Source of the DNA: a virus
Taxonomy: Duplodnaviria; Heunggongvirae; Uroviricota; Caudoviricetes
Length of the DNA stretch: 50,997 nt
Strand: one strand, 5' to 3'
IMG/VR virus record: IMGVR_UViG_648276648_000009
Span: 1 to 50,997 of that record
Shown piece by piece: positions 1-50,535 of the stretch. How positions within the stretch are numbered: the first letter of the stretch is position 1; each line of letters starts with the position of its first letter. The notes beneath the pieces were generated by a model. That model saw nothing but the letters and a program-made list of their open reading frames with translations, ran no database searches and was not told where the DNA came from. Both the position numbers and the translations under genes were made by a program.

Positions 1-361
1 CACGGCTTCCCGCTTCTGGTCTGTCGTCAGTACTTTCGCCCAAGAGCCACCTGAAGCGCCTCTTTATCCAGCATGGCTTCGGCAAGCAGCTTCTTGAGTC
101 TGGCGTTCTCTTCCTCAAGCGACTTCAGGCGCTTAACTTCAGGCACCTCCATACCGCCATACTTCTTACGCCAGGTGTAAAACGTGGCATCGGAAATGGC
201 ATGCTTGCGGCAGAGTTCACGGGCGGGTACCCCAGCTTCGGCTTCGCGGAGAATACTGATGATCTGTTCGTCGGAAAAACGCTTCTTCATGGGGATGTCC
301 TCATGTGGCTTATGAAGACATTACTAACATCGGGGTGTACTAATCAACGGGGAGCAGGTCA
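1..361 (-). mobile_element. IS3-family insertion sequence, partial (continues beyond window start); terminus placed near 353-361 where the minus strand reads TGACCTGCTCCCC
   Basis: OrfA-type transposase ORF at 27-290(-); TG-initiated terminus ~70 bp upstream of orfA start; boundary assigned by eye. Confidence 0.6.
27..290 (-). CDS. IS3-family transposase OrfA (HTH DNA-binding subunit)
   Basis: 87-aa ORF MKKRFSDEQIISILREAEAGVPARELCRKHAISDATFYTWRKKYGG... with C-terminal leucine-zipper-like heptads, typical of IS3/IS407-group OrfA. Confidence 0.85.
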   Translation of the reverse strand: MKKRFSDEQIISILREAEAGVPARELCRKHAISDATFYTWRKKYGGMEVPEVKRLKSLEEENARLKKLLAEAMLDKEALQVALGRKY

Positions 362-511
362 GCGTTTTTATGCTTCGCCGTACGGATTTGAAGCCATTTG
401 TCTGGAAGAACGAAATTGGTCCCAGCTCATACGCTCAAACGAGGGGGTGCCACAACCTGGCCTTTTTCTACAAAGACGAGCTTTCTGTGGTTGATATTCA
501 AGGGTTACAAC

Positions 512-1417
512 ATGTTTAAGCACTGGAAAAACATTACTATTTATAAACTTTCTCGTGAGGCGGATCTGACCGACTTAGAAGATAAAAAGAAAATGATCCT
601 TTTCACGCCATGCGGTAGTCAGGATATGGCCAAGTTCGGTTTTGTATCTCCATTTGGTGATAATTCCGAAGTTATCGCTATGCATGGAAATGGTTTTATC
701 CTTGTTGAAGCAAAGCGCGAAACAAAAATTCTTCCCCCGCCGGTTATCCAGCGAGCTATTCAAGAAAAAATTGAAAAACTTGAGCAAGAACAAGCGCGTA
801 AACTGAAGAAAACAGAGAAGGACTCCCTGAAAGACGAAGTTCTGCATTCTCTTCTGCCACGGGCTTTTTCAAAGTTTTCTGTTATCTAGGCGATCTACGA
901 CGGTTCAACTAAACGTATCTATATCAATGCCAGCGCGCGGCAGGCAGAGGATATGCTCGCGCTTATGCGTAAGTCTCTGGGTTCTCTTCCTGTTGTTCCC
1001 CTGAGTGTTGAAAATCCCATTGAATTAACGCTGACCGACTGGGTACGTGATGGTAGTGCTCCACAGGGATTTCAAATGGGGGATGCGGCAGAACTTAAGG
1101 CAGTGCTTGAGGATGGCGGTATTGCCCGGGTGAAAAAGCAGGATTTGGGAAGCGATGAAATTTCCACACACCTGGAAGCTGGCAAGCTCGTCACTAAGTT
1201 GGCACTCGACTGGCAGAACCGCATTAAATTTACACTGGACCATAACTTCAGCCTTACCAGCGTCAAATTTGCGGATGAATTGCTTGAGCAGAACTCTGAT
1301 ATTGATAGTGAAGATGTTGCGCAGCGACTGGACGCAGATTTCTTCCTGTTGACCAGTGAAATTTCGTGCCTGGTTGATGCTCTGGTAAATGCCCTTGGTG
1401 GAGAGGCTAAGCAGTGA
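512..1417 (+). CDS. hrdC: RdgC-like recombination-associated protein (P1 HrdC homolog), interrupted by an in-frame TAG at 887-889; ORFs 398-889 and 953-1417 are in the same frame
   Basis: N-terminal part ([16 protein letters not shown]...[12 protein letters not shown]) and C-terminal part ([40 protein letters not shown]...) both align to E. coli RdgC as recalled; single in-frame amber codon between them. Confidence 0.75.
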
Positions 1418-3678
1418 AAGAGCTGTGCTATGGATCTGTTTGCAGTGGAATTGAAGCCGCGAGTATTGCCTGGGAACCGTTGGGTATGCGTCCGGTGTGG
1501 TTTGCTGAAATCGAGTCTTTTCCATCTGCCGTTCTTGCGCACCGCTGGCCCCATGTCGCCAACCTTGGCGACATGACAAAACTTGCCAAAAAAGTCCTGG
1601 CTGGGGAAATCGAATCCCCTGATGTGCTCGTCGGGGGTACGCCTTGTCAGGCATTCAGTATCGCGGGCTTACGTGGTGGGCTTGATGATGAACGCGGCGC
1701 GCTAACTTTGAAGTATGTGGAGCTTGCAAATGCAATTGACGACAAACGGTCTGAGTCCTTCCTCAAACCGACAGTTATCGTCTGGGAAAATGTCCCAGGA
1801 GTCCTGTCATCGGCAGATAACGCCTTCGGATGTTTCCTTGCCGGATTGGCTGGAGAAGATGCGCCATTTGAACCAGGTGATCGACCTGAATCAGGAAAAA
1901 GTAACGCGTTCTGGCGGTGGGATGGCAAAACCGGTTGCCATGCTCCAAAGTGGCCGCAGTGTGGTTGTATTTATGGACCGCAGCGAAAGGTGGCCTGGAG
2001 AATCCTTGATGCCCAATACTTCGGAGTGGCACAACGACGCCGACGCGTGTTTGTTGTCGCAAGTGCTCGAACAGACCTCGATCCCGCAACGGTACTTTTT
2101 GAGTTCAAAGGCGTGCGCCGGAATATTGCGCCGAGCCGAAAAAAGAAGGAAATCGCTTCCGCCATTATTGCAAATGGCGCTGCAATCAGTGGCGAAAGCC
2201 TAAATCCATGCCTACACGCTGACATGCCACCCGGTATGAAATCGACGAAAGCCGTAAACGCTTTCAGGATGGCAGCATTTGGGGAATATATTGACGATGA
2301 AACCGCATCGACAGTAAAGGCAAGAGATTTTAAAGATGCCACTGACCTTGCCGTTTTTAGCAGCACAGGAGCAGGTTTTTGGTCAGAAGGGCATGGTACA
2401 TTGCGGGCACGTGAGCAAGAAAGCCATGAGCATCTTGTTACATTGGCTTTTCCTGAGCGTATGAGCGGTACACAACATGCTGCAACTAAGAATACTTCAC
2501 CATCTCTAATGGCTAAAAATCCAACAGCTGTTTGCTATGAAGTAAGAAACGCAGAAGTAGCTGTCCGCCGTCTTACCCCTGTCGAATGTGAAAGGCTGCA
2601 AGGTTTTCCTGATGGGCATACGTTGATCCCGACGGAAAAGCGTAAAAAAGTTAATTCAGATGAACTGGCATATCTTCGCAATCACTATCCAGATTTAAGC
2701 GAAGAAGAGGCCGCGATGCTTGCAGCTGACGGACCGCGTTACAAAGCGATCGGCAATAGTATGGCAATACCAGTAATGCGCTGGATTGGCGATCGGATTA
2801 CTAAGTCCGTATGTCGGCAGAAAGAAGGAAGTGAAACAAAAGAGCGAAAAGTTAAACCAGCGGCAGAATTCGAACGGTCCATATTCAAATGGGCTGGTGG
2901 AAAATTTGGTGTTCTGGAACAAATCTTTCGCTATTTGCCAGAAGGGAAGCGCCTGATTGAACCTTTCGTTGGTGGCGGAGCTGTCTTCATGAATGCCGGA
3001 TACCAGGAAAATCTGCTAAATGATGTGAATGCTGACCTGATTAACTTTTACAAGACTCTGCAACGCGAGGCGCATTCACTTATCACTCTGGCACATCGTT
3101 TCTTCCAGGACTACAACACACAGGAAGGATACCTGGCAGTACGGAATGCGTTTAACAAACAAGTCTATGATGATTTACATCGCGCAGCGGCGTTTTTGTT
3201 CCTGAACCGACATTGTTTTAACGGATTGACGCGTTACAACCAGGCCGGTGAGTTCAATGTCGGTTATGGGAAGTATAAAACTCCGTATTTCCCATTACAG
3301 GAGATGGAAGCCTTCCTCGGTGCGGAAGGGCGGTCTGAGTTTGTATGCGGTGATTTTGCAGCGGTGATTGAAGCTGCCGGAGAAGGAGATGTCATCTTTT
3401 GCGATCCGCCGTATGAACCGCTTCCAAATACAGAGGGATTCACGAACTATTCCGGTCATGACTTTAAGTTTGAAGAGCAAAAACGCCTGGTGTCTCTGTT
3501 GACGGATGCTCATCGTCGAGGTGCAAAGGTTCTCATTACTAACAGTGGCGCGCCAAACATCAGAGAGCTTTATCATGACAGTGGCTTCAGAGTGGAACCT
3601 CTTTTTGCCAGACGTTCTGTGTCTTGTAAGGGGGACACTCGAGGTGTAGCTCATGACGTTTTGGGTATATTGCTCTAA
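1414..3678 (+). CDS. dmt: Bifunctional DNA methyltransferase: N-terminal C5-cytosine MTase domain (PCQ and ENV motifs), C-terminal Dam-like N6-adenine MTase domain (DPPY motif)
   Basis: 754-aa ORF; [12 protein letters not shown] and VWENVPG motifs, then FCDPPYEP; GTG start overlaps hrdC stop (GTGA). Confidence 0.9.
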
Positions 3679-3698
3679 TAAATTTATTAGTGTAATAT
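3669..3698 (+). promoter_or_regulatory. C1 operator (exact ATTGCTCTAATAAATTT, 3669-3685) overlapping a sigma70-like promoter (-35 TTGCTC, 17-bp spacer, -10 TAATAT) facing the tRNA/tci/ban region
   Basis: Exact match to the 17-bp P1 C1 operator consensus; promoter hexamers read directly. Confidence 0.6.
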
Positions 3699-3859
3699 CG
3701 CCTCAATGAATCGTGATTTATAGAGCGATTTAGCTGTTAGCCGCGACAGGCGCGGCGGTAAGCATGGCTGGGCCTAGTCCTCCCAGACAAACCACCGAGT
3801 TGCCAGGTTGACCATGCGCCTAAGTGGCAACTCCGAAGTGCGTTACGAGCTTCCAGTTT

Positions 3860-3887
3860 GCCCATCTTCGGGTGGGCGTTTTTTTTC
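3860..3887 (+). terminator. Rho-independent terminator-like hairpin followed by T8
   Basis: GCCCATC-TTCG-GGTGGGC stem-loop then TTTTTTTT. Confidence 0.5.
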
Positions 3888-4067
3888 AGGGTTTTCGTCA
3901 TGGTTAGCGACTTTGCGGCGGTTTAGAAACTGACCATTAAAGTAAATGCAAACGATGATCTGATGATGGTAGCGGCCTAAGAAGCCAGATGCCACGGGGT
4001 ATGAGTCGTCCCCCGTCAAAAAATCGACCGCAGAGTGTCCCCGTCTGTGTATTAGGGAACGGGGAGG

Positions 4068-4148
4068 CACAACAGGTAAGGGCGCTGGTGTGATTAACCA
4101 GATGAACGAGAAGGGGCCATCTGTTGGTCAGCGTCCTTTCCTGTTGCG
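4068..4148 (+). repeat. Structured hairpin element R0 of the tRNA-array repeat family (5' ACAACAGGTAAGGG ... 3' CCTTTCCTGTTGCG)
   Basis: Long imperfect inverted repeat sharing the ACAGGTAAGGG arm with R1, R2 and R4. Confidence 0.5.
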
Positions 4149-4351
4149 TTTTCTTTTCAGCGTAACAGCGGTGCTTAACAGCACTTTGGGTACAGTTCCA
4201 CGAATTTACGGGTATATCCCGTCATGCTGAAAGCGCTAATCACGCTGGAAGCCAGGGTTGTGCATCCCCTGTTACCGAATTGCAGCCAGGGCGCGGTGCG
4301 CCGAAAAGCATACGGAGGTGGAAGCCCTCGCCGGAGACGTACCCGGCAAGT

Positions 4352-4427
4352 GATGGTGTAGCTCAGCGGTTAGAGCGGTTGACTGTTAATCAACGGGTCG
4401 ATGGTTCAAATCCATCCACCATCGCCA
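4352..4427 (+). tRNA. tRNA-Asn (anticodon GUU)
   Basis: 76-nt cloverleaf: acceptor GATGGTG/CACCATC, anticodon loop CTGTTAA, T-loop GGTTCAAATCC, 3' CCA encoded. Confidence 0.9.
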
Positions 4428-4429
4428 AT

Positions 4430-4505
4430 GCCGGTTTAGCTCAGTTGGTAGAGCGCCTGCCTTGTAAGCAGGATGTCAGCGGTTCGAGTCCGTTAATCGG
4501 CACCA
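4430..4505 (+). tRNA. tRNA-Thr (anticodon UGU)
   Basis: 76 nt; close to E. coli tRNA-Thr as recalled; anticodon loop CTTGTAA; T-loop GGTTCGAGTCC; CCA encoded. Confidence 0.9.
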
Positions 4506-4506
4506 G

Positions 4507-4616
4507 CACAACAGGTAAGGGTATTTTGCGACGTCGGAGATCGCCGAGCTTGGCAGAGGGTTCGAATCCCTACGAAGTACCCTTACCGTTGTGATGAATG
4601 CGCAGGCTGATGCGCG
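4507..4616 (+). repeat. Structured element R1: long stem ACAACAGGTAAGGGTA/TACCCTTACCGTTGTG enclosing a canonical T-arm-like hairpin (GAGGGTTCGAATCCCTAC), followed by a GCGCAGGCTGATGCGCG hairpin
   Basis: Inverted repeats and T-loop motif read directly; no anticodon arm, so not called a tRNA. Confidence 0.5.
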
Positions 4617-4716
4617 AAAGACATTGCAGCTATTGCGGAAAAGAGCTGTTCGGCGGGGCAATTAAACGCCCGTGAGAGTCTGAAATAACCGCAAGCCGGA
4701 GATCAGCACCGGTCAT

Positions 4717-4810
4717 CACAACACAACAGGTAAGGGCATTCTCCCTTATGGGGCTTGGCTTAAATGCATCGAGTGCTCTTACCGTTGTGATGAAGTGCAG
4801 CTCTTTGAAG
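4717..4810 (+). repeat. Structured element R2 of the same family (ACAACAGGTAAGGGCA ... TGCTCTTACCGTTGTGATGAAG)
   Basis: Shares both stem arms and the GTGATGAA tail with R1. Confidence 0.5.
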
Positions 4811-4928
4811 CAACCAGAAGATAAGCATCTGGCTTCACAACATAAACCGCAGGAACGACCAATAAACGGTAGTCCGTATGGAGAACACCCCGTTGAGGAA
4901 GAGGCCTGGCCGGAACCGTAACCGGCAC

Positions 4929-5047
4929 TACAACGTTGAGAACACTGGCGTAACGGGGTCATATCCCAATCTACGAATAAATGTTGCGTTGCAGCGTGAC
5001 AACCAGTGTTCTCAACATTGTGGTGAATGCACAGGCTGATGTGCCGC
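4929..5047 (+). repeat. Structured element R3 (CAACGTTGAGAACACTG ... CAGTGTTCTCAACATTG stem, internal GGGGTCATATCCCAATCTAC, GTGGTGAATGCACAGGCTGATGTGCC tail)
   Basis: 17-bp perfect inverted repeat with T-arm-like internal hairpin; tail matches R1. Confidence 0.5.
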
Positions 5048-5203
5048 AACTACAGTAGTGCGCGCTTTGCGGGGCTTGCTACAACCCTGTGTCGGAGTTC
5101 AGCACCGACCATCACAGTTTGATTCTCTGGCATGAGCATAACGCTGAAATAAGTCCAGTCTGGTGCGGCCCGATCACCCGCCGTTAGCTCCACGAAACGG
5201 AGC

Positions 5204-5306
5204 ACGTAACAGGTAAGAGCATTCTCCTGTAACGGGTTCATATCCCAATCTACAGGTCCACCAGGAATGCTCTTTCCGTTGCGGTGAATGCGGCTAAGCG
5301 CACGCG
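5204..5306 (+). repeat. Structured element R4 (ACGTAACAGGTAAGAGCA ... TGCTCTTTCCGTTGCGGTGAATGCGG, internal GGGTTCATATCCCAATCTAC)
   Basis: Same arm and tail motifs as R1-R3. Confidence 0.5.
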
Positions 5307-5432
5307 GGGAAATGGTTATATCTGTCCATTATTTCTCCTTATTTCCCCGTCCATGGTGGATAACCAGCCAAAGGACACCGGGAAGCACCCGGCACCGCAA
5401 CCTTATTTCCCAACCAGTAATGAGGTTAATAA

Positions 5433-5858
5433 ATGCTCGGCATTCTCAAAAAGAAATTCCGCAAAGCGGCTGGCGGAGTCAAGAAGATGGAAAACCGTGA
5501 TGCGGTGGAAGCGACTGTCTGGGGCGCATATTCCATTGCATACTCTGACGGCACCTGCGATGCGAAAGAAATTGCAGTGTTGGAAAAAACCATTGCAGCA
5601 CTTCCTGCCTTTGCGCCGTTCTCCGGTGAAATTGCCCAGATGAGCGCCAATATTCGCGCTCAATATGAAGCCTCGCCGCGCCGAGCGAATGCCCAGGCTT
5701 TACGTGAACTGGCTGACGTGTCTGGAACTAATGATGCGGTAGATGTTCTGTGCCTATGCATTGATATTGCTGACCAGGATGGCATTGGGGCAGAAGAGCA
5801 GGAGCAATTGAAGAAAATTGCCCAGGCTCTTCAATTGCCACTGGAACAGTATATCTGA
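5433..5858 (+). CDS. tciA: TerB-like tellurite-resistance family protein (P1 TciA-like)
   Basis: 141-aa ORF with SD; acidic TerB-like composition; sits upstream of two small membrane ORFs and tRNA-CAU as in the P1 tci cluster. Confidence 0.7.
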   Translation: MLGILKKKFRKAAGGVKKMENRDAVEATVWGAYSIAYSDGTCDAKEIAVLEKTIAALPAFAPFSGEIAQMSANIRAQYEASPRRANAQALRELADVSGTNDAVDVLCLCIDIADQDGIGAEEQEQLKKIAQALQLPLEQYI

Positions 5859-6022
5859 TGGTTATAAAAGCACGTCTAATTCTGGCTTTGGTTTTTCTCG
5901 TGCTATCTGTGCTGGTGGATTTCACCAGCACAATCCTGTCGGTTTTATCCGACGGGGCGTTGGTAGCAGTAGCTGTAACATTGGTATGGCCGATATTAAA
6001 AACAGCTTCTAAGGATCAGTGA
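5858..6022 (+). CDS. Small membrane protein, 54 aa (TciB-like)
   Basis: ATG overlaps tciA stop (TGATG); MVIKARLILALVFLVLSVLVDFTSTILSVL... single TM segment; below the ORF-track length cut-off. Confidence 0.55.
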   Translation: MVIKARLILALVFLVLSVLVDFTSTILSVLSDGALVAVAVTLVWPILKTASKDQ

Positions 6023-6129
6023 TGGGCTTCTGGGATTTTGCTGACAAGCATCCAATTGTTCTCGTTGTCATTGCTGGCATAGTTGTAGGCGGTATTGCTG
6101 GCGTCATAGAAGCACTCAGGAAACAGTAA
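6022..6129 (+). CDS. Small membrane protein, 35 aa (TciC-like)
   Basis: ATG overlaps preceding stop (TGATG); MGFWDFADKHPIVLVVIAGIVVGGIAGVIEALRKQ. Confidence 0.5.
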   Translation: MGFWDFADKHPIVLVVIAGIVVGGIAGVIEALRKQ

Positions 6130-6132
6130 TCC

Positions 6133-6208
6133 GGCCCTTTAGCTCAGTGGTTAGAGCTGGCGACTCATAATCGCACGGTCACCGGTTCAAGTCCGGTAGG
6201 GGCCACCA
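6133..6208 (+). tRNA. tRNA with CAU anticodon, most likely tRNA-Ile2 (lysidine-type) rather than Met
   Basis: 76 nt; near-identical to E. coli ileX-type tRNA as recalled; anticodon loop CTCATAA; CCA encoded. Confidence 0.85.
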
Positions 6209-6450
6209 TATTTGGTTGTAACACGGCGTCTGGCACATGCGTCGTTAGCGGTCTGGTGACGTTAAAAGGGGGGAACCTTGCCCCTAGCTCAGGCAACGAA
6301 CCAGGTAGCCGGAATGTGCAAGCCACCGTTTGTTGTTTCTCGGGTAAAGGGATTCACCATCCTGGCGATTCGGTGTGACAGCCGGGAAGAGTCCGGCGCA
6401 TTAATCCTGATTTTCTGGTGATGACTCATATCGTTAGGAGTGATTTGAGT

Positions 6451-6495
6451 ATGCCGATTATATCTGACATTCAGCACGCCTGGGTGGAGTGCTAA
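6451..6495 (+). CDS. 14-codon upstream ORF (MPIISDIQHAWVEC) whose TAA overlaps the ban ATG (TAATG); candidate translational-coupling leader
   Basis: AGGAG 10 nt upstream of the ATG; stop/start overlap read directly. Confidence 0.35.
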   Translation: MPIISDIQHAWVEC

Positions 6496-7859
6496 TGTCT
6501 GCATCCCCTCTTGAATCCATGCCAAATTCCCTTAGTGCAGAACAAGCTGTACTTGGTGGCTTAATGCTTGATAACTGCCGCTGGGATGAAGTTGCAGATC
6601 GTATAGTTGCTGATGATTTTTATACCAGTGCTCATCGTGAAATTTTCAGTGAGATGGAGAGGTTATTAAGTCATGGCAAACCGATTGATTTGATAACACT
6701 TGCTGAAGCACTTGAACAGAACGGTAAATTAGAACGCGCCGGTGGTTTTGCGTACCTTGCGGAGATGTCAAAGAACACGCCCAGCGCGGCAAATATTTGT
6801 GCTTATGCGGATATCGTTCGTGAACGCGCGGTTGTTCGTGAAATGATTTCCGTCGCAAATGAAATAGCCGAAGCTGGATATGCGCAGGATGGCAGGGGCA
6901 GCAATGAATTGCTGGATATGGCCGAGCGCCGCGTTTTTGAAATAGCTGAAAAACGACAAAAGAGCGGTAGTGGTCCAAAAGATATCGCCAGCATTCTCGA
7001 TGCAACGGTATCTCGCATAGAAGAGTTGTTTCAGCGACCACATGATGGTGTAACGGGGCTTGATACGGGATTTACCGATCTCAATAAGAAGACGGCAGGG
7101 CTTCAGCCGTCCGATCTCATCATTGTCGCCGCCCGCCCATCTATGGGGAAGACCACGTTTGCGATGAATCTCGTCGAAAATGCTGCAGTTCGTAACGATA
7201 AGCCCGTATTGGTTTTTAGCCTTGAGATGCCGAGCCACCAGCTGATGATGCGCTCACTGGCTTCTCTTGCACGCGTTGATCAGACTCGTATTAGAACGGG
7301 GCAACTTAACGACGATGATTGGGCGCGGGTTTCTGGCGCAATGGGGATTCTGTTGGACAAGCAGAATATTTTTATTGATGACTCAAGCGCCCTGACACCT
7401 ACAGAGCTTCGTTCCCGCGCTCGTCGTGTTTATAAAGAAAATGGTGGTTTGAGCATGATTATGATCGACTACCTGCAACTTATGCGCGTCCCCGAGCTGC
7501 AAGATAACCGAACGCTGGAAATTGCCGAGATTTCTCGCTCACTGAAGGCTTTGGCGAAGGAATTACAAGTACCAGTGGTGGCATTGTCACAACTTAATCG
7601 ATCGCTTGAACAGCGTGCGGACAAACGACCGGTAAATTCAGATTTACGTGAATCAGGAGCAATTGAGCAGGACGCAGACCTGATCATGTTTCTGTATCGC
7701 GACGAAGTTTATCACCCGGATAGCGAAATGAAGGGAATTGCCGAGGTAATTATCGGTAAGCAACGAAATGGCCCAATTGGCACGGTGAGATTGGCTTTTA
7801 ACGGTCAGTATTCACGATTTGATAACTATGCTGGTGCTGACTGGCAAGAGGATTATTAA
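6495..7859 (+). CDS. ban: Replicative DNA helicase, DnaB family (P1 Ban)
   Basis: DnaB N-terminal domain and Walker A (ARPSMGKTTFAMNL); ORF track starts at GTG 6489, ATG at 6495 has the better SD. Confidence 0.9.
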   Translation: MSASPLESMPNSLSAEQAVLGGLMLDNCRWDEVADRIVADDFYTSAHREIFSEMERLLSHGKPIDLITLAEALEQNGKLERAGGFAYLAEMSKNTPSAANICAYADIVRERAVVREMISVANEIAEAGYAQDGRGSNELLDMAERRVFEIAEKRQKSGSGPKDIASILDATVSRIEELFQRPHDGVTGLDTGFTDLNKKTAGLQPSDLIIVAARPSMGKTTFAMNLVENAAVRNDKPVLVFSLEMPSHQLMMRSLASLARVDQTRIRTGQLNDDDWARVSGAMGILLDKQNIFIDDSSALTPTELRSRARRVYKENGGLSMIMIDYLQLMRVPELQDNRTLEIAEISRSLKALAKELQVPVVALSQLNRSLEQRADKRPVNSDLRESGAIEQDADLIMFLYRDEVYHPDSEMKGIAEVIIGKQRNGPIGTVRLAFNGQYSRFDNYAGADWQEDY

Positions 7860-24264: not shown

Positions 24265-25817
24265 TTCTGCACCTCGCAGCCTTCAATTTCAGCCACAATC
24301 GCATCAATATCTTTACGCAACTGGTCGATTTTGCTGACCGTGATTTTCAGCTCTGCATTCAACTCAGCGATATCGATAATTTCGCGAGTATCTTTCGCTT
24401 CAACATAGCTGCTCACCGACAGGTTATAGTCATTAGCAACAACGGTCTCAAACGCGACTGATTTCGCCAGATGAGCAACATCTTCCTTGCTGGCAAATAC
24501 CTGCATAATCTGTTCGATATGGGCATCGGTCAGGATATTGTTGTTGGTCTCTTTTTTGAATAGTTCGCTGGCGTCAATAAACTGAACTTTTGTATCTGTT
24601 TTATGTTTAGACAACACCAGAATGTTTACGGCAATGGTGGTGCCAAAGAACAGGTTCGGTGCCAGTGAAATCACGGTTTCGACATAGTTATTATCAACCA
24701 GATACTGACGGATTTTCTGCTCCGCGCCGCCACGGTAAAAAATACCCGGGAAGCAAACAATCGCAGCACGACCTTTGGCAGAAAGATAGTTCAGCGCATG
24801 TAGTACAAAGGCGAAGTCAGCTTTTGATTTGGGGGCCAGAACGCCAGCCGGGGCAAAACGTTCATCGTTAATCAGCGTCGGGTCATCGCTGCCAATCCAT
24901 TTCACCGAATACGGCGGGTTAGAAACGATGGCATCAAACGGTTTTTCATCTCTGAAGTGTGGTTCAGTCAGCGTATTGCCCAGCTTGATATCAAACTTGT
25001 CGTAGTTGATGTTGTGCAAAAACATGTTCATACGCGCCAGGTTATAGGTCGTATGGTTGATTTCCTGACCAAAAAAACCTTCTTCGATGATATGGTCATC
25101 AAACTGTTTTTTAGCCTGCAACAACAGCGAACCGGAGCCTGCTGCCGGGTCGTAGATTTTGTTAACGTGGGTCTGCCCGTGCATAGCCAGTTGTGCAATC
25201 AGCTTAGAGACGTGCTGCGGTGTAAAGAACTCGCCGCCGGACTTACCGGCATTCGCGGCATAGTTAGAAATCAGGAACTCATAGGCGTCACCGAACAGAT
25301 CAATCTGATGTTCGGTGAAGTCACCAAGTTTTAACCCTTCAACCCCTTTCAGAACCGCAGCCAGGCGGGCATTTTTATCTTTAACGGTGTTACCCAGGCG
25401 GTTACTGGTGGTATCGAAATCAGCAAACAAACCTTTGATGTCTGCTTCTGAAGGGTAGCCGTAAGCAGAACTTTCGATAGCAACGAAGATACTGTTTAAA
25501 TCTGCATTCAGTCTGTCATTGGTATTTGCTTTCGCAGCTACGTTGCAGAAAAGCTGGCTTGGGTAGATGAAGTAGCCTTTGGTTTTGATGGCATCGTCTT
25601 TAATGTCATCAGTAATTACGCTGTCATCCAGTGCTGCATAACAGATGCTGTCATCATCGGCTTCCATATAGCTGGAAAAATTTTCGCTGATAAAACGATA
25701 AAAAAGCGCGCCCAGAACGTACTGCTTAAAATCCCATCCATCGACTGAACCCCTGACATCGTTAGCAATTTGCCAGATCTGGCGATGAAGTTCTGCACGT
25801 TGTTGAATACTTGTCAT
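24261..25817 (-). CDS. hsdM: Type I N6-adenine methyltransferase subunit (HsdM)
   Basis: 518 aa; AdoMet motif [10 protein letters not shown] and catalytic NPPY. Confidence 0.92.
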
Positions 25818-34317: not shown

Positions 34318-34539
34318 GTGGCTACTATCCCTACCCCTGCTCATCCTGAATTTATCTGGCGCTTTTACTCCTGCCAAAAACGTCACTATCACTTCGTTAT
34401 TGCACCGACAGAAGATGAGGCACGTTCTCAGCTTCCTGACGCCCCATGTATTTTCTCTGCCCGTTTTTCCACTGATTCACGCAATTCTCTCAGTTACTGG
34501 TGCCTCCCTGTTAACGCTTCTGCTCAGGAGGGACTATGA
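34318..34539 (+). CDS. icd: Icd-like 73-aa protein, copy 1
   Basis: GTG start after AAAAGGAGG; overlaps the antirepressor start (ATGA); substitutions between the two copies are almost all synonymous in this frame. Confidence 0.65.
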   Translation: MATIPTPAHPEFIWRFYSCQKRHYHFVIAPTEDEARSQLPDAPCIFSARFSTDSRNSLSYWCLPVNASAQEGL

Positions 34540-35648
34540 GAACATCGTTAGTTACCCGTGAAGAGATGATCGAGGCAATTGAACAGCACACTGCCTGTAT
34601 CAGTACCAGGGATATACCTGGCGTTATTGCCAACTACTTCATGATCACCAAACAACTTTACCGGAGAAAGGACAAACACGCAGTTCACCGCATTCTGCTA
34701 ACCGATATCCGTGAATACCTGCTCGAACAGGGTCATCTAAATTACGCAACCGTCGCAGCCGAAGCACGCAAGGAGGCACACAGAATGAAAGCAACTAACG
34801 TTAAATCAGAAAAAATTTATGCACCTTCAGTTCAGGAATCGGAACTGGTGGTTGTTCAGAATCAGCCGGATGAAATTCCCGTTCTGGAATGGCAGGGAGT
34901 ACGTGTCGTGACAACCGAAACTCTTGCTAGAGGGTATGGGGTCGATGAAGCCAATATTCGCAACAATTTGTCTCGCAACCTTGACCGCTTTGAAGAAGGT
35001 AAGCATTACTTTCTTCTAACTGGTTTAAAATTAAGAGAATTTAAGAACAGAGTAACCGGAAGTTACTCTGTTGGTAAGAACGCCAGAAGCCTTACACTCT
35101 GGACAGAGCGCGGCGCTGCACGCATGTCTAAGATCGTGGACACAAATGAAGCATGGGCATTCTTTGAAAAACTGGAAGACAGCTACTTCCGGCAAAAAGA
35201 ACAGCAACCGGTTGCAATCCCCCAAACATTACCAGAAGCCCTACGCCTGGCTGCCGAACTGGCTGAACAAAAGCAGCTTCTGGAACAGAAAGCCCACCAG
35301 CTAAATCAGCAGCTGGTGGCCGCCGCTCCTAAGGTCGATTTTGCCGACCGGGTATCAGTAGCTAAAGGGATCCTGATTGGGAATTTTGCAAAGGTTGTTG
35401 GACTTAAGCAAAATGCGCTGTTTGCCTGGTTACGGGAGAACGGCATCCTGATAGCGTCCGGTGGACGTAAAAATGTGCCGTTCCAGCAGTACATCAACGC
35501 GGGGTATTTCACGGTGAAAGAAGTGGTGCTGGATGATGAAGATGGCTACCAGATACGGTTGACGCCTCAATTAACGGGTAAAGGCCAGCAGTGGTTGACG
35601 CGTAAACTGCTCGATGCTGGCTTGTTAAAACCGGTGGCGGCTGAATAA
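34536..35648 (+). CDS. ant: Phage antirepressor (AntA-like N-terminal domain, ANT/KilAC C-terminal domain), copy 1
   Basis: 370 aa; translationally coupled to the icd-like ORF. Confidence 0.85.
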   Translation: MRTSLVTREEMIEAIEQHTACISTRDIPGVIANYFMITKQLYRRKDKHAVHRILLTDIREYLLEQGHLNYATVAAEARKEAHRMKATNVKSEKIYAPSVQESELVVVQNQPDEIPVLEWQGVRVVTTETLARGYGVDEANIRNNLSRNLDRFEEGKHYFLLTGLKLREFKNRVTGSYSVGKNARSLTLWTERGAARMSKIVDTNEAWAFFEKLEDSYFRQKEQQPVAIPQTLPEALRLAAELAEQKQLLEQKAHQLNQQLVAAAPKVDFADRVSVAKGILIGNFAKVVGLKQNALFAWLRENGILIASGGRKNVPFQQYINAGYFTVKEVVLDDEDGYQIRLTPQLTGKGQQWLTRKLLDAGLLKPVAAE

Positions 35649-41499: not shown

Positions 41500-41721
41500 A
41501 TGGTTAATGCCAATCCTTGCGCACGCCCTGAATTTATCTGGCGCTTTTACTCCTGCCAGAAACGTCACTATCACTTCGTTATTGCACCGACAGAAGATGA
41601 GGCTCGCTCTCAGCTTCCGGATGCTCCCTGCATTTTCTCTGCCCGTTTTTCCACTGATTTGCGCAACTCTCTCAGTTACTGGTGTCTCCCTGTTAACGCT
41701 TCTGCTCAGGAGGGACTATGA
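41500..41721 (+). CDS. icd: Icd-like 73-aa protein, copy 2
   Basis: Identical to copy 1 except the first 9 residues and one S-to-L change; ATGA overlap with the antirepressor. Confidence 0.65.
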   Translation: MVNANPCARPEFIWRFYSCQKRHYHFVIAPTEDEARSQLPDAPCIFSARFSTDLRNSLSYWCLPVNASAQEGL

Positions 41722-42836
41722 GAACGTCATTAGTCACCCGTGAAGAGATGATCGAGGCAATTGAACAGCATACCGCCTGTATCAGTACCAAGGATATACC
41801 GGGCGTTATTGCCAACTACTTCATGATCACCAAACAACTTTACCGGAGAAAGGACAAGAACGCGGTTCACCGTATCCTGTTGTCTGATATCCGCGAATAC
41901 CTGCTCGAACAGGGTCATCTGAATTACGCAACCGTCGCAGCCGAAGCACGCAAGGAGGCACACAGAATGAAAGCAACTAACGTTAAATCAGAAAAAATTT
42001 ATGCACCTTCAGTTCAGGAATCGGAACTGGTGGTTGTTCAGAATCAGCCGGATGAAATTCCCGTTCTGGAATGGCAGGGAGTACGTGTCGTGACAACCGA
42101 AACTCTTGCTAGAGGGTATGGGACAGAAACAATCCGTATTCGCCAAAATCATCATGAGAACAAAGTACGCTTTGTTGAAGGGAAGCACTTTTTCAAAGTT
42201 GAAGGAGAATCATTGCGCGAGTTGAAGCACAGAGTAGCTTTAAACTACTCTGTAAAAATTGCTCGCAATGTTCGCTCACTCACCCTCTGGACAGAACGCG
42301 GCGCAGCCCGCCACGCTAAAATGCTCGAAACCGATCAGGCATGGGCATTCTTTGAAAAACTGGAAGACAGCTACTTCCGACAAAAAGAACAGCAACCGGT
42401 TGCAATCCCCCAGACGCTTCCAGAAGCCCTACGCCTGGCTGCCGAACTGGCTGAACAAAAGCAGCTTCTGGAACAGAAAGCCCACCAGCTAAATCAGCAG
42501 CTGGTGGCCGCCGCTCCTAAAGTCGATTTTGCCGACCGGGTATCAGTAGCTAAAGGGATCCTGATTGGGAATTTTGCAAAGGTTGTTGGACTTAAGCAAA
42601 ACGCGCTGTTTGCCTGGTTACGGGAGAACGGCATCCTGATTGCGTCCGGCGGGCGTAAAAATGTACCGCTCCAGCAATACATCAACGCCGGGTATTTCAC
42701 GGTGAAAGAAGTGGTGCTGGATGATGAAGATGGCTACCAGATACGGTTGACGCCTCAATTAACGGGTAAAGGCCAGCAGTGGTTGACGCGTAAACTGCTC
42801 GATGCTGGCTTGTTAAAACCGGTGGCAGCTGAATAA
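41718..42836 (+). CDS. ant: Phage antirepressor, copy 2 (mosaic: termini near-identical to copy 1, central ~70 aa divergent)
   Basis: 372 aa; direct comparison with 34536-35648. Confidence 0.85.
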   Translation: MRTSLVTREEMIEAIEQHTACISTKDIPGVIANYFMITKQLYRRKDKNAVHRILLSDIREYLLEQGHLNYATVAAEARKEAHRMKATNVKSEKIYAPSVQESELVVVQNQPDEIPVLEWQGVRVVTTETLARGYGTETIRIRQNHHENKVRFVEGKHFFKVEGESLRELKHRVALNYSVKIARNVRSLTLWTERGAARHAKMLETDQAWAFFEKLEDSYFRQKEQQPVAIPQTLPEALRLAAELAEQKQLLEQKAHQLNQQLVAAAPKVDFADRVSVAKGILIGNFAKVVGLKQNALFAWLRENGILIASGGRKNVPLQQYINAGYFTVKEVVLDDEDGYQIRLTPQLTGKGQQWLTRKLLDAGLLKPVAAE

Positions 42837-45003: not shown

Positions 45004-48000
45004 TTATGCGTATTGTTGGATGACGGCCAGAACGTCCGCCACGTTGTGTTTTGTCTCGATAATCCACCAGTTACCTGGGAAGTCGCTGTTCTTCGCCTTC
45101 GCTGGCAGCCAGCGAGCGCCGAATTTCGCCTTGATTGCGTCTTTCGCACGGAAAAGAACGCCTTTCATGCCTGAGGCTTCCTGAAGCCCAAATACCTCGC
45201 CAGCGGCGAATTTTGGTGCGTACATCATCTTCAGGTCGGCGGTGGATACGCGATAATTCAGACCAAGAGACTGAGCTATGCTGGTGGCATCACCCTGTAT
45301 TGATGATAACTCTTCTTGTTTCTCGTTTCTGGCGGCAATTTCTTCCTCCGTGATGTTGCCAAGGGCCAGGTTTATCCGATCAGCGTCGGCCTGTTTCTCT
45401 TCATCGGTGCGCCCGGCAAGAACCGTGTTAATTCTCTGCAATATCTCCACATGATTCTTGCGCATGCTGAGCAATTCCGGCGTAACCTCGTTAAGATCCA
45501 CCAGCCCAAGGATGGCAAGGTCGGAAAACATTGATACTAGGTTGTAGGTCATGCGATAGCTGAGTTGGCCATAGGCTGATGGCAACTGCACCGCATCCAT
45601 TTGATAGGCATCCATAAATTTAGAGCCGTCGTTTACGACATCCGCAATTGCAGGTGTGATTTTCCCTGTGGTGGCGGCCTCCCTGATTGCTGTTACCCAT
45701 GATTGAGTCAGTGCGGCGACTGCATGATTCAGATTGGCTTCCCGTTCTGCTGCGATGCGCGCGCTTGCTGAGTCCATTGCCTGCTTGATCTCGGCTTTAT
45801 TGCTGTAAATGCCGATGGTGCCAAACTGTGCTGTGGTGATCTCATAATCTGACGCCCGGAACTCATGGGTACCGAAAATGGCATTGGTGACCTCAAGTTC
45901 AGAATCCCCGTTACGAGTAGCCCCCTGGCTTGTTTTCTCCGGCATTTTTGCGATCGCATCCGCTATTTTCTCCTGAATTGCTTCAGGGGATAGCGTATCT
46001 CCGTATGACGCGATTACATCGCCATAATTGGAGCCAAACAATTCAACCAGGAATGTTTCTGCCGAACGGATCTGGCGGTTATTCCCTTCCGACATCATAC
46101 CAAGCACCCATTTTGCAATTGACGACTTCAGCGCGCCGTCACGGCGATCCGGGTAAACCGCATGCTTCAGTGGGGCCGTATAGGAACCAACAAAATCAAT
46201 GCTATAGCCTGACTCTGTAGTCTGAACGCCGTATGAGTCAGTGATTTTGATCATGCCGCGCTGCTGGAAACGGTAGAAATCGTCACAGGAAATGATGTCG
46301 TTAATCCCGGCGATGGAGACGCCACCACTGATTTTCTGCATAACAGCATCTTCATCGGGAGTTACATCAACCTGTTTATCCAGCGTCTTCACATCCCAGT
46401 TACCCGATTTGGTGCCTTTGAAGGTAAAGATGATCTCCACGTCTGCGCGCTGGCTGTCGAAGTCCAGCGACTTAATGCGAACGATATCACCGGCACAATC
46501 ATAGTATTGGCCTACACGCCATGAGCGATCGCCGATAACAAGGAACTCATTCGCATGGTTAACCAGATCAGGATCAACATCCAGAATGCCTTTATTTATT
46601 GCATCCTCCACCAGCGGGCGCAGGCGTTTGATATCCGTCGCGGCCTTCTGAGTACGGTTCAATAATTTCTCATAGCGGGAGATGGCCTGAGAGATATTAG
46701 CCTTGCGCTGAATGGCGCTTTTCAACGACGCGCGATACTGTGCTAACAACATACGGTCTGTGTGATGGACGCTACCCCAGCGGGCTTTCCAGTCTGCGTT
46801 ATCAGCTGCTTTGGCCATTACCGCCTGTTTGAATTTGGCGACGTCGGCGGTGGTCTTTTCAAGTTCCGCTTTGCTTCGCTCCAATTCAGCGGTAAGTACC
46901 TCCACATCCTCACCAGCTGCGTGCTGCGCCTTGATGTAGTTCTGAAGGTCGATAGTAGCCTGTTCTTTCTGGCGAGCGCGTTTCGCAGCTTTCGCCTTAT
47001 CCATTTGAACCTGCATCATTACCAGACGTTCGCCGTCATCCTTCGCGGTATACATCTGCATTTCGATCATGTCATTGGCGTCGGCGTTCTCCATTTCTGA
47101 CTTATCTGAACGGAGGATATCGGAGATCCAGCCTGCTTTACGCTTCAGCGTCTTCAGTCGGTATTCATCGAAAGACCCCTTGCCGCAGTAGTAGTGAACG
47201 CGAACGCTTGCACGGTTGGAGCCAACTCGTGCACCGCGACCGTTACGTTGTGCGATACTGGCTGGTGTCCACGGCAACGTCAGGTGGTGGATATCCGTCG
47301 TTCCTCGATGCAGGTTGATACCCACCTCTGCCTTTTTGTTGCAGATGATGATCGGAGTCCGGCCCTCCTGGAAGTCGGCTGCAATCTTTTCCAGACCGCC
47401 CAACGACATTTCATTTTGCTGCGCGATATAGGCGTCATACAGAGCCATTTGCTCGTTGTATTTCGCTATCTGTGCATCTGTTGGTTCATCCGGTAGCTCT
47501 TTCGGCGGTTTAACCGCTTTCAGTTTCTTACCGGTTTTACCTGCCTCGGCAACCGTCTGAGCATTCAGGATCCCCACCTTTGAAGGTTCAAGGTCTAGAG
47601 CATTGCAGATAATGCGCTTGAGCTTCTGGTGCTGCGTTTTTTCATCGGTGAAGATGACTTGCTTACCTTCCGGGAAAAACTCCTTCAGCGTGGCGATCAG
47701 CTTCGCGTATTTCGGCGTAACGGGGTGAGTTACGGTCAGTTCGTCAATGCCAAACCTGGCCAGGCGCTTATTCACTTCCTGCTCGAACGCTTCCGGAACC
47801 TGCAACTGAATAAACTCGCCCTTATCTATCAGGGAGTATTGCGATTGCTGCGTGATTGAATCATCACTGTCGTCGTCTTCGCTGGTGGCTTGTTTAGGCA
47901 AACTGTCCGCCAGCTGCTGCACCGCATCGGCGTACTCCGGCAGGAAACGATAGGTGATCCGGCGATAGTACAGGTCCATGTCAGTACATACGCGGTCCAT

Positions 48001-50496
48001 ATCCCTGATTATTGAGAAGATCGGACGGGCTTTCTCGTGCTCAATCACGCCGTCTTCATTGACCGAGGTCGTTACGCCATTGTTGGCTTTGGCCGCCGCT
48101 TCCGCCTGCTGACGCAATTCTTCATACGCCGCCAGTTGTTCTTCAGTAAGTGGTGCATCCTGCTGGTGTTCGTCCAGCTCCGGGATCTCCACGGTATCCT
48201 TAACGTCTTCCGCCGTTTTAAGCGTTACCCAGCGATGGAATATACCGCGCAGCGCATCAAGGTTTTCAAAGCCCACCAGCGCCATTTTTTCTTCAACTTC
48301 ACCGCTGATTTTCTGTACCGTTTCCAGCCTGGTCTTGCCGAAGAATTTAACGAAGTCATCAGGACCGTAGATCCCCATCTTCTGCCAGTATTCCTTCGGC
48401 AGCACATGAGAAAGCATGTTGTATGCATCGATCGGGGTGTTAACGACTGGCGTTGCAGTCAGGAGAACCGGTCCGCGCCCACCATTCTTTTTCATCAGGT
48501 ACGCGTTTTTAATTGCCATATCCCGCGCCGATTGCGCCACCGCGCTGGTGGGCAGATAGGCCAGTTGTGACGCTTCGCGACCATTTTTATAGCTATTGCG
48601 GTAGTTGTGACCTTCGTCAGCGATCACACTATCGAAGCCCATATCCTCAAAGTACGGATACTTCTCTGCTTTTTCGGTGCCGGTATCTGAATACTCCGAC
48701 AATACCCGGCGACGCGCGGCCTCTTTGCGGTGGGAGTCGGAGTCCATTGCGCTGGCTACGCGTCCGGCGGCAACGAAGTCATAAAGCATATCCTGTGCAT
48801 GCTCATCTACGGTGTCATCACGTAGCGGAATGCGGGCGTATTGTTCTTTGGTAAACACGACTGCACGGTAATTTGAGTGCGGGATCGCGTTCATCCGCGC
48901 CGTGATAGTGGCTTCATCTGCCAGCTTAAGAGCATCGCGCATAACTGGAGTGCCATCAGTACCAAGAACAGGTTTACCGTTCTCATCGAGCACCGGCACC
49001 TGGCGAATCTGATCGCCATCCATCAGCACATCAAGACCGACGAACAGGTAGTTACTGAATGCCTCTTCACTCAGGAATTCTTTTGCTTCGTAATACCAGT
49101 TTTCCAGCACTGATTTAGGCACTACATACGCAGTACGGGTGGAGCGACCGTTCTCATAGTTGAACGCCTCAAGCGCCAGCGCGGTCGTGGTTTTACCCAG
49201 CCCGGTGCCGAAGCCCAGGATGCCGCGCCCATCTTCGGACAGTCGGCGCACCTCGCTATTCTGGTAATCAAATGGCTGGCGCTTACCGCTTAATCCCTTC
49301 AACCCAAGCGGATCGCCAGAGTGTTCATACGGGATATTGCTATTGAACACATCGTTGTATTTGGCAACCAGTTCATCGTAGCGATCGTGCGTCTTGATCC
49401 ACTTATTGAACTGGTCCTCAAGCAGTGCCATCTGCTCGCGGTAGCCGTTCGCCGTCGCGCTATCTTTGCCACCGATACGCGCACCATTGAGATACTTTTC
49501 CAGCTGTGCCGGGAACCCGGTCGCGTTTTCACCTGATTTACGGTCCCACTCGTAGCGGATCTCGCCTGTTTCTTTATCCTTGCGCTGGACGACACCGTAT
49601 CGGTGCCCGACGAACAGACCATCACCACCGTGATAGGTGTCAGAAACCATTTCGTCGCCTTCCAGCTGCACTGACTGCACATAGCGAAGATCTGGATAGC
49701 CGTTTTCCTGCAAAAATTCCAGAATGACGGAACGGTCGAACCAACGGCTATTGAGCTTAAAGCGGATATTCTCTGCTGGCGTCTTGATGCGCTTCTCTTC
49801 GATCGCTGCCAGCTGATTAAGGACGTTGTTCTTTACTGGACCGTCGGGGAGTGTGGCAAGGAATTCCTGTTTTGGTGCCACTATCTCGTTAATGTCGCCG
49901 CTGGTGGCGCGGGCGAACGGAACAATCCCGCCATACGGTGAAACCGCAATGCCAGGGGTGCTGGCCAATAAATTAAGCAACTCGTCATCACTGGCTGGCA
50001 GTTCGCCGGTAAACGCAAGGCGGAAATCATCGAGCTGGATTGGATCGCGAGTGAGATCACTGTAGAGATAACGCAGGGTGTCCTGATAGCTGGTGGAGTC
50101 ATAACTGGCGCTGGAATCATGCGTAACCAGTTTTCCTGTCAGCTCGTCAGAAATAGTGCCATCCAGCTTAATTGCACCACGGAAAGCAAACCAGGCGCGC
50201 GCACCGCTCCCCGATAATTTCGCTATCGGACCGCGACCGGGGTTACCAAAACGGTCAATCTCTGCCTGCAAACGGGATACCAGAGAAAGGCGCTGCTGTT
50301 CGATTTGTTCAGCACTATGCCCGGCGGCCTTCATGTCCTGATATTCAATTAACATCCGGCCAATCATCGCCCCGCGATACAAGCGTTCACGGTATTTTTC
50401 AGGCTGGCTGTTAATCCAGTCCACCAGCTGCACCATATCGTCGCTGATTGATGTGGTGTACTTATCGCGGACATTTGCCATCTGGGTAAATGTCAT
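45004..50496 (-). CDS. darB: Large DExH/SNF2-type helicase-domain protein (DarB-like defence-against-restriction protein), possibly 5'-truncated by IS26
   Basis: 1830 aa; helicase motifs GFGTGLGKTTTALA, VIADEGHNYRN, QRNGRGARVG; no methyltransferase motif; frame open from the first Met up to the IS26 boundary. Confidence 0.7.
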   Translation of the reverse strand: MTFTQMANVRDKYTTSISDDMVQLVDWINSQPEKYRERLYRGAMIGRMLIEYQDMKAAGHSAEQIEQQRLSLVSRLQAEIDRFGNPGRGPIAKLSGSGARAWFAFRGAIKLDGTISDELTGKLVTHDSSASYDSTSYQDTLRYLYSDLTRDPIQLDDFRLAFTGELPASDDELLNLLASTPGIAVSPYGGIVPFARATSGDINEIVAPKQEFLATLPDGPVKNNVLNQLAAIEEKRIKTPAENIRFKLNSRWFDRSVILEFLQENGYPDLRYVQSVQLEGDEMVSDTYHGGDGLFVGHRYGVVQRKDKETGEIRYEWDRKSGENATGFPAQLEKYLNGARIGGKDSATANGYREQMALLEDQFNKWIKTHDRYDELVAKYNDVFNSNIPYEHSGDPLGLKGLSGKRQPFDYQNSEVRRLSEDGRGILGFGTGLGKTTTALALEAFNYENGRSTRTAYVVPKSVLENWYYEAKEFLSEEAFSNYLFVGLDVLMDGDQIRQVPVLDENGKPVLGTDGTPVMRDALKLADEATITARMNAIPHSNYRAVVFTKEQYARIPLRDDTVDEHAQDMLYDFVAAGRVASAMDSDSHRKEAARRRVLSEYSDTGTEKAEKYPYFEDMGFDSVIADEGHNYRNSYKNGREASQLAYLPTSAVAQSARDMAIKNAYLMKKNGGRGPVLLTATPVVNTPIDAYNMLSHVLPKEYWQKMGIYGPDDFVKFFGKTRLETVQKISGEVEEKMALVGFENLDALRGIFHRWVTLKTAEDVKDTVEIPELDEHQQDAPLTEEQLAAYEELRQQAEAAAKANNGVTTSVNEDGVIEHEKARPIFSIIRDMDRVCTDMDLYYRRITYRFLPEYADAVQQLADSLPKQATSEDDDSDDSITQQSQYSLIDKGEFIQLQVPEAFEQEVNKRLARFGIDELTVTHPVTPKYAKLIATLKEFFPEGKQVIFTDEKTQHQKLKRIICNALDLEPSKVGILNAQTVAEAGKTGKKLKAVKPPKELPDEPTDAQIAKYNEQMALYDAYIAQQNEMSLGGLEKIAADFQEGRTPIIICNKKAEVGINLHRGTTDIHHLTLPWTPASIAQRNGRGARVGSNRASVRVHYYCGKGSFDEYRLKTLKRKAGWISDILRSDKSEMENADANDMIEMQMYTAKDDGERLVMMQVQMDKAKAAKRARQKEQATIDLQNYIKAQHAAGEDVEVLTAELERSKAELEKTTADVAKFKQAVMAKAADNADWKARWGSVHHTDRMLLAQYRASLKSAIQRKANISQAISRYEKLLNRTQKAATDIKRLRPLVEDAINKGILDVDPDLVNHANEFLVIGDRSWRVGQYYDCAGDIVRIKSLDFDSQRADVEIIFTFKGTKSGNWDVKTLDKQVDVTPDEDAVMQKISGGVSIAGINDIISCDDFYRFQQRGMIKITDSYGVQTTESGYSIDFVGSYTAPLKHAVYPDRRDGALKSSIAKWVLGMMSEGNNRQIRSAETFLVELFGSNYGDVIASYGDTLSPEAIQEKIADAIAKMPEKTSQGATRNGDSELEVTNAIFGTHEFRASDYEITTAQFGTIGIYSNKAEIKQAMDSASARIAAEREANLNHAVAALTQSWVTAIREAATTGKITPAIADVVNDGSKFMDAYQMDAVQLPSAYGQLSYRMTYNLVSMFSDLAILGLVDLNEVTPELLSMRKNHVEILQRINTVLAGRTDEEKQADADRINLALGNITEEEIAARNEKQEELSSIQGDATSIAQSLGLNYRVSTADLKMMYAPKFAAGEVFGLQEASGMKGVLFRAKDAIKAKFGARWLPAKAKNSDFPGNWWIIETKHNVADVLAVIQQYA

Positions 50497-50535
50497 GCCG
50501 AGACGGCCTTCTGTTGTAGTCAGGTTACGCTGAAG

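Follow-up and report, generated by a model that had tools for sequence, protein, structure and literature searches.

Amber mutation at a Dcm site in hrdC of a P1-like plasmid-prophage of Escherichia coli M718

Introduction

The RdgC-like gene hrdC in a P1-like plasmid-prophage of Escherichia coli M718 is interrupted by a TAG codon. This raises the question of whether the locus still provides a functional protein and, if it does not, by which route the gene was lost. The DNA considered here (hereafter the window) is a stretch of 50,997 nt. It runs to the end of scaffold GL884141.1 (GCA_000176575.2) and starts right after an N gap inside an insertion sequence (IS). The original prediction, made from the letters of this stretch, regarded the TAG as a nonsense allele, either a pseudogene or a suppressor-dependent gene, and proposed that premature termination could also lower the translation of the adjacent methyltransferase gene dmt. 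As described below, the P1-like IncY plasmid-prophage of M718 very likely carries a recent loss-of-function amber allele, hrdC(Q126am), that probably originated from deamination of 5-methylcytosine and would be neutral or nearly so.

Results and Discussion

Reading frame of hrdC

The segment 512–1417 of the plus strand is hrdC of P1 with a single in-frame TAG at 887–889. It is 906 nt long and matches hrdC of P1 (AF234172, 65510–66415, 906 nt) in length and register. Its translation gives 301 sense codons, one internal stop (the TAG) and the terminal TGA at 1415–1417. The features of the locus are collected in Table 1.

Table 1. Features of the uhr-hrdC-dmt locus in the window
Feature	Position	Strand	Remarks
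Left-end portion of IS3-family (ISSen4-like) element	1..361	-	orfA at 27–290; terminal inverted repeat ...GGAGCAGGTCA at 361
uhr 3' remnant	362..519	+	last 51 of 94 codons; translation of the remnant matches the Uhr C-terminus
hrdC N-terminal fragment	512..889	+	125 codons and the amber; first half of the centre domain and the tip/finger domain
Mutated Dcm site	886..890	+	CTAGG here, CCAGG in all relatives; T887 is the position of the inner cytosine (the base that Dcm methylates) and the first base of the amber
hrdC C-terminal portion	890..1417	+	codons 127–301 and TGA; in frame, otherwise the same as wild type
dmt, bifunctional C5-cytosine / N6-adenine DNA methyltransferase, 754 aa	1414..3678	+	intact, same as in CP027320.1

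The Pfam profile RdgC (PF04381) matches the N-terminal fragment with profile positions 3–122 (E 2e-36) and the C-terminal part with positions 130–298 (E 2.5e-55), and both pieces are thus collinear with one RdgC domain. Such collinearity had been predicted, as well as the location of the ORFs 398–889 and 953–1417 in one frame, and the ORF list of the plus strand agrees with this. The prediction that the TAG is the sole interruption and stands at a sense codon of RdgC holds as well: there is one internal stop, and codon 126 of hrdC lies opposite Met127 of E. coli RdgC (PDB 2OWL). The TTG at 398 is only the mechanical start of an ORF, the real start of hrdC being the ATG at 512, which overlaps the uhr stop. 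The first in-frame ATG past the TAG is found at 953 and opens an ORF of 154 aa. The TAG at codon 126 breaks the frame, and no single polypeptide runs end to end across PF04381; hrdC of the window is therefore a pseudogene of a member of this family. Among the deposited proteins of E. coli M718 its two parts appear as EGI18622.1 (125 aa) and EGI18623.1 (154 aa). These two 'RdgC' ORFs are to be read as one hrdC pseudogene.

The gene order uhr-hrdC-dmt is preserved together with both gene overlaps, ATGTTTAA at 512–519 and GTGA at 1414–1417, and the segment is collinear with P1 65360–68676. The predicted overlap of the dmt start with the hrdC stop is exactly that of P1 (GTG at 1414, TGA at 1415–1417). 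In P1 and P7 hrdC (AAQ14040.1) is the second gene of a C1-controlled operon; it has ~99.5% nucleotide identity with the gene of the window, the same 906 nt and register, and the same overlaps of the uhr stop with the hrdC start and of the hrdC stop with the dmt GTG. In contrast to P1, codon 126 of the window is TAG instead of CAG, and an IS3-family element takes the place of Odmt/Pdmt along with the first 43 codons of uhr.

Ancestral codon and authenticity of the mutation

Alignment with P1 and its relatives, which the original prediction proposed as a way to the ancestral codon, gives CAG (Gln126) in P1, P7 and phage vB_EcoM-673R5. The wild-type context is ATCCAGGCG in all relatives and ATCTAGGCG in the window, i.e. 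a single C-to-T transition at base 887 converted CAG to TAG. The nearest plasmid is CP027320.1 (E. coli 2014C-3084, IncY). Positions 363–6700 of the window differ from it at base 887 alone, with T in the window and C in the plasmid. One difference in 6.3 kb means that dmt and the rest of hrdC are untouched and that the mutation is recent. There is hardly any doubt that hrdC of the window is a nonsense loss-of-function allele, and this part of the original prediction stands with the ancestral CAG and the one-base difference from the nearest relative.

The rarity of the allele was assessed with a 63-mer centred on the TAG, which was searched against complete E. coli genomes, PLSDB plasmids and phage records. 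No exact match to this TAG-bearing 63-mer was found in 547 matching records from 5,426 complete E. coli genomes, 546 PLSDB plasmids and 18 phages. All matches fall within the 95–99% identity band, and those listed have 98.4% identity (one mismatch). Intact HrdC of 301 aa is present on more than 2,500 contigs, and the two fragments are present on 6 (the 125-aa one) and 56 contigs. Homologues naturally split into two genes at the position of the TAG would speak against a mutant allele, but homologues as a rule encode the unbroken 301-aa HrdC, and the codon is CAG in P1 and P7; a natural two-gene organization was therefore rejected.

It should be considered whether T887 was introduced into the M718 draft by faulty sequencing or assembly, hrdC being really intact. 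The scaffold comes from an old draft and has N gaps, and none of the complete genomes, plasmids and phage records searched contains the allele. OU349840.1 also gives no independent confirmation of the TAG and was rejected in this role: it consists of the same contigs, with the N gap at the same place inside the IS. On the other hand, an independent Logan assembly of run SRR024329 has a sequence of 2,306 nt that includes both the same TAG and the strain-specific IS-uhr junction, which supports the TAG indirectly at the level of the reads, and the identical change occurs in two unrelated assemblies on other haplotypes (see below). Moreover, a change at a known hot-spot base is a biological expectation, whereas typical platform errors are homopolymer indels. 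An error is therefore very unlikely.

Consequences of the mutation for the protein

HrdC with Gln restored at codon 126 aligns end to end with RdgC of E. coli (PDB 2OWL, E 3e-113) and of P. aeruginosa (2OWY, E 4e-66). These proteins are ring-shaped dimeric DNA-binding inhibitors of RecA, and the repaired HrdC covers their conserved gate residues (LLPRAF) as well as the interface region of the base domain. In P. aeruginosa RdgC the centre domain is formed by residues 1–73 and 121–167, the tip (finger) domain by residues 74–120 and the base domain by residues 168–306 (PMC1885664). Two interfaces close the ring, one at the gate (F120) and one at the base or 'horseshoe' (PMC1885664). The residues involved are R118 and F120 at the gate and Q212, E218 and K227 at the horseshoe/base (PMC2965237, PMC1885664), and single substitutions in either interface abolish RdgC function in vivo (PMC2965237).

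In contrast to RdgC, the amber HrdC ends at residue 125 and is devoid of the equivalents of residues 127–303. The 125-aa product keeps the gate motif LLPRAF (114–119) and ends before the base domain. Translation stopping after residue 125 would leave the finger domain, while the remaining half of the centre domain and all of the base domain would be lost, and the truncated HrdC would fail to close the RdgC-type ring dimer around DNA. By analogy with the structure of RdgC, the 125-aa product is almost certainly inactive. It is possible that translation re-initiates at ATG 953 to give a product without the N-terminal half; a Shine-Dalgarno-like AGAGGA is located only 1–2 nt from this ATG, which is poor spacing.

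The suppressor-dependent option of the original prediction would imply a functional allele. The amber could then be decoded by a supE-type (glnV) suppressor of the host or by one that the phage encodes, or be passed by programmed readthrough. A Gln-inserting suppressor acting on the TAG derived from CAG would restore the exact wild-type protein, the 175 codons past the TAG are intact and the same as in the wild type, and tRNA genes do occur in P1-like elements. Intact downstream sequence is, however, expected of any recent mutation, given one difference in 6.3 kb. A suppressor tRNA encoded by the element was looked for and rejected: the three tRNAs found within the 50,997-nt window are tRNA-Asn(GTT), tRNA-Thr(TGT) and one with the CAT anticodon, and none has a CUA anticodon. 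An alternative code with reassigned TAG was rejected as well, as TAG closes 5 of the 30 longest ORFs of the window and is thus a normal stop here. Amber suppressors are rare in natural isolates, and a host supE-type suppressor is unlikely in one. Taken as a whole, a functional allele is hardly credible, and the suppressor-dependent option finds no support.

The tRNA with the CAT anticodon (6133–6208) is assigned as tRNA-Met by ARAGORN. In the P1 record the equivalent gene (trnI) is annotated as tRNA-Ile2, which reads AUA after lysidine modification.

Origin of the mutation at a Dcm site

Base 887 corresponds to the inner cytosine of a Dcm site, which the mutation turned from CCAGG into CTAGG. 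The sequence features of a Dcm hot-spot mutation are present, namely an ancestral CCWGG, a change of its inner C and a C-to-T transition. There are three Dcm sites in hrdC. Six deamination products are possible at these sites; five of them are synonymous, and only that at Q126 creates a stop. For comparison, hrdC has 97 single-base routes to a stop codon, including 22 G:C to A:T transitions.

Between the window and CP027320.1, 7 SNPs fall on inner C/G positions of Dcm sites against 1.4 expected, and five of these seven are CCWGG/CTWGG pairs. CCWGG is found 151 times in the whole window, compared with 76 ± 8 in dinucleotide-preserving shuffles, and this excess would be consistent with residence in a dcm/vsr host. 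Over-representation of CCWGG is a known footprint attributed to Vsr repair, and dcm is carried by most E. coli.

In E. coli, amber hot spots classically arise by deamination of 5-methylcytosine at Dcm sites. Coulondre, Miller, Farabaugh and Gilbert reportedly assigned those of lacI to 5-methylcytosines of Dcm (CCWGG) sites in 1978. In the case of hrdC, Dcm would have methylated the inner cytosine of CCAGG, the resulting 5-methylcytosine at base 887 would have been spontaneously deaminated to thymine, and the T:G mismatch would have escaped very-short-patch repair by Vsr, giving an amber hot spot of the Coulondre-Miller type. The Dcm ambers of lacI agree with that of hrdC in the site (CCAGG), the base (inner C), the change (C to T, CAG to TAG) and independent recurrence. 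They differ in that the lacI hot spots are known from selected laboratory mutants, while the hrdC amber comes from natural plasmid populations and methylation of its site is presumed. On this evidence, the hrdC amber probably came from deamination of 5-methylcytosine.

Recurrence of the amber on other haplotypes

The 31-mer spanning the TAG is TTCTGTTATCTAGGCGATCTACGACGGTTCA, the wild-type counterpart being its C variant. The same T at base 887 is present in GCA_041021585.1 and GCA_030014835.1, two unrelated assemblies with different hrdC haplotypes. In both of them uhr is intact upstream of hrdC; the amber stands in an otherwise intact operon and is therefore independent of the IS background.

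The haplotype of GCA_030014835.1 differs from plasmid NZ_CP023896.1 at base 887 only across 1,801 nt, and the wild-type twin of the M718 haplotype, CP027320.1, likewise differs at base 887 alone. The M718 and GCA_030014835.1 haplotypes are distinguished from each other by 7 other sites in hrdC. With two haplotypes that each part from a wild-type twin at base 887 alone, the mutation recurs, as is to be expected of a hot spot. For the GCA_041021585.1 haplotype no wild-type twin was found in PLSDB, the closest sequence having 98.8% identity, so that its independence is only probable. Judging from these sequences, the Q126 amber of hrdC appears to have at least two independent origins, probably three. 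The change, seen in one member of each of two twin pairs and on a third carrier haplotype, is 1 of the 97 routes to a stop.

Alternatively, the TAG could have a single origin and have reached further P1-like plasmids through homologous recombination, as a shared polymorphism. These plasmids are strongly mosaic, and after 6.3 kb the identity between the window and CP027320.1 falls to ~98–99%. Besides, GCA_041021585.1 and GCA_030014835.1 have common alleles directly downstream of the TAG, and a gene-conversion patch shorter than ~190 nt could in principle move one TAG between haplotypes. This limit follows from the nearest sites distinguishing M718 from GCA_030014835.1, which lie 106 nt upstream and 86 nt downstream of the TAG and argue against a transfer. 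A single origin also has to face the fact that each of these two haplotypes has a twin differing at base 887 only, and that the mutated base is the sole nonsense-generating Dcm position among the 97 routes to a stop. We therefore consider a single origin improbable and favour recurrent mutation at the Dcm site.

Some observations concern contig ends at the same place. Three metagenome/Logan contigs from different samples stop at the window-equivalent position 887 (with C) and two stop at 886; in addition, up to 19 contigs have NCBI partial proteins ending at codons 127–130. Contig ends at the hot-spot C could reflect C/T mixtures within samples that break assembly graphs, and exact-sequence look-up selects such ends.

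State of the uhr-hrdC-dmt operon

According to the GenBank annotation, Pdmt, which is controlled by the C1 operator Odmt (Op68), drives transcription of uhr-hrdC-dmt in P1. In the window, neither Odmt/Op68 nor the sigma-70 promoter Pdmt is found in front of an intact uhr. Instead, similarity to P1-like plasmids begins at 362, and the match to P1 begins at P1 65360, inside uhr (65233–65517). The IS end abuts codon 44 of uhr, the 5'-terminal 127 nt of the gene (first 43 codons) being deleted, and P1 65064–65359 is missing from both the window and the source scaffold. The IS of M718, flanked by the 3' end of upfB on one side and by codon 44 of uhr on the other, is 99.5% identical to annotated members of the IS3-like ISSen4 family. 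Its orfA encodes an 87-aa protein of HTH_Tnp_1 type on the minus strand, and the transposase reads away from hrdC. A matching inverted repeat is present at the other end of the IS in the source scaffold (the IS region includes scaffold segment 1868–2850). The deletion relative to the intact plasmid CP088508.1 amounts to 1,349 bp and takes in upfB almost completely, the upfC region, Odmt/Pdmt and the first 127 nt of uhr. The IS-uhr junction was found in none of the 5,426 complete E. coli genomes. Since Pdmt and the 5' end of uhr are lost to this IS-associated deletion, the whole operon is already crippled. A crude consensus scan of 250–1600 for a promoter that might have taken over from Pdmt revealed no promoter-like site on the plus strand; transcription may still read out from the IS.

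The proposal that lost coupling to hrdC lowers dmt expression draws on the GTGA overlap, which is indeed present. The effect itself is possible and reasonable as a mechanism but finds no support: a Shine-Dalgarno sequence of its own, GGAGAGG, stands 7 nt ahead of the dmt GTG, and no RNA structure that would hide the ribosome-binding site and make coupling obligatory was found (local fold against shuffles, z = 0.73). The output of dmt would drop further through lost coupling and Rho-type polarity over 525 untranslated nt. From the sequence of the locus it can be suggested that dmt expression in M718 is probably low, chiefly owing to the lost promoter, and that the missing promoter probably harms dmt more than the lost coupling does.

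In GCA_030014835.1 (locus 3903–6378) and SRR31486877 (3462–6465) dmt encodes 1,013 aa and not 754 aa, with Hint_2 and LAGLIDADG_3 matches inside the C5-methylase part. This suggests that the longer protein is a methyltransferase with a putative intein.

Other features of the window

The right edge of the window (50536–50997) is an end of IS26. It adjoins an open frame of at least 1,843 codons (45004–50535, minus strand) with SNF2/helicase domains. This frame resembles what we take to be darB on the P1 map, the product of which is presumably ~2,255 aa. In that case IS26 has removed the N-terminal part of the antirestriction gene. Loss of the uhr-hrdC-dmt promoter to one IS and the cut in the putative darB by IS26 suggest that the plasmid-prophage is decaying.

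A complete type I restriction-modification system is located at 19758–25817 (minus strand) and consists of hsdR (1058 aa, EcoR124_C), hsdS (422 aa) and hsdM (518 aa). It lies within a 6.6-kb segment replacing the pmgT-pmgV region of P1 (P1 ~84483–85929). Two paralogous antirepressor-type ORFs with ORF6N and ANT/KilAC domains are found at 34536–35648 (370 aa) and 41718–42836 (372 aa); both segments are missing from CP027320.1.

Dispensability of hrdC

In a genome-wide CRISPRi screen of P1, uhr, hrdC and dmt were all non-essential for lytic growth (PMC10695390). Other lesions of hrdC are also found in P1-like elements. They comprise –1 in a C5 run (gene nt 223–227), –1 in an A6 run (254–259), a +2 insertion at 237, a 79-bp deletion (202–280) and an R81 opal (CGA to TGA). 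All five kinds leave the same 154-aa C-terminal ORF. In addition, hrdC is cut at apparent insertion or IS junctions in some P1-like elements. The 'RdgC1/RdgC2' pairs of vB_EcoM-673R5 and 813R1 likewise consist of an N-terminal fragment and the same 154-aa C-terminal ORF. These disrupted alleles differ from that of M718 in being frameshifts, a deletion, an insertion or the R81 opal; none of them is a Q126 amber. Some of the frameshifts in homopolymers may be sequencing errors.

The Q126am allele would be neutral or nearly so and would persist by drift, because hrdC is expected to be C1-repressed in the prophage and is dispensable for lytic growth. Neutral decay of an accessory gene is the simplest reading of these data. 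It is also conceivable that loss of hrdC is selected, an RdgC-like inhibitor of RecA being costly to the host or the plasmid and the Dcm site supplying mutations fastest. The variety of inactivating lesions (at least six different ones in natural P1-like elements, plus the truncations at IS junctions) could be read in this way, and so could the absence of the operon promoter in M718. Against selection, intact HrdC is far commoner than its fragments (more than 2,500 contigs vs 6 and 56), the P1 operon is annotated as C1-repressed and so should be silent in the prophage state, and several of the frameshifts are in homopolymers and are maybe long-read sequencing errors. Selected loss is accordingly unlikely. 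A more elaborate proposal treats the nonsense-capable Dcm site as a methylation-driven 'fragile codon', at which knockouts are favoured since HrdC is costly, with a convergent, epigenetically biased loss of the gene as the outcome; we regard it as quite unlikely. Neutral decay is thus preferred here.

Biological significance

As a pseudogene produced at a mutational hot spot of the classic type, the hrdC allele of M718 is ordinary and brings nothing new in kind. What is new, on a small scale, is that ambers at Dcm sites, known from textbooks as a laboratory phenomenon, recur in natural P1-like plasmids. The recurrent change at the Dcm site is a homoplasy and could mislead SNP-based typing of plasmids. 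As for the function of the gene, its repeated loss supports HrdC being dispensable for P1-like elements.
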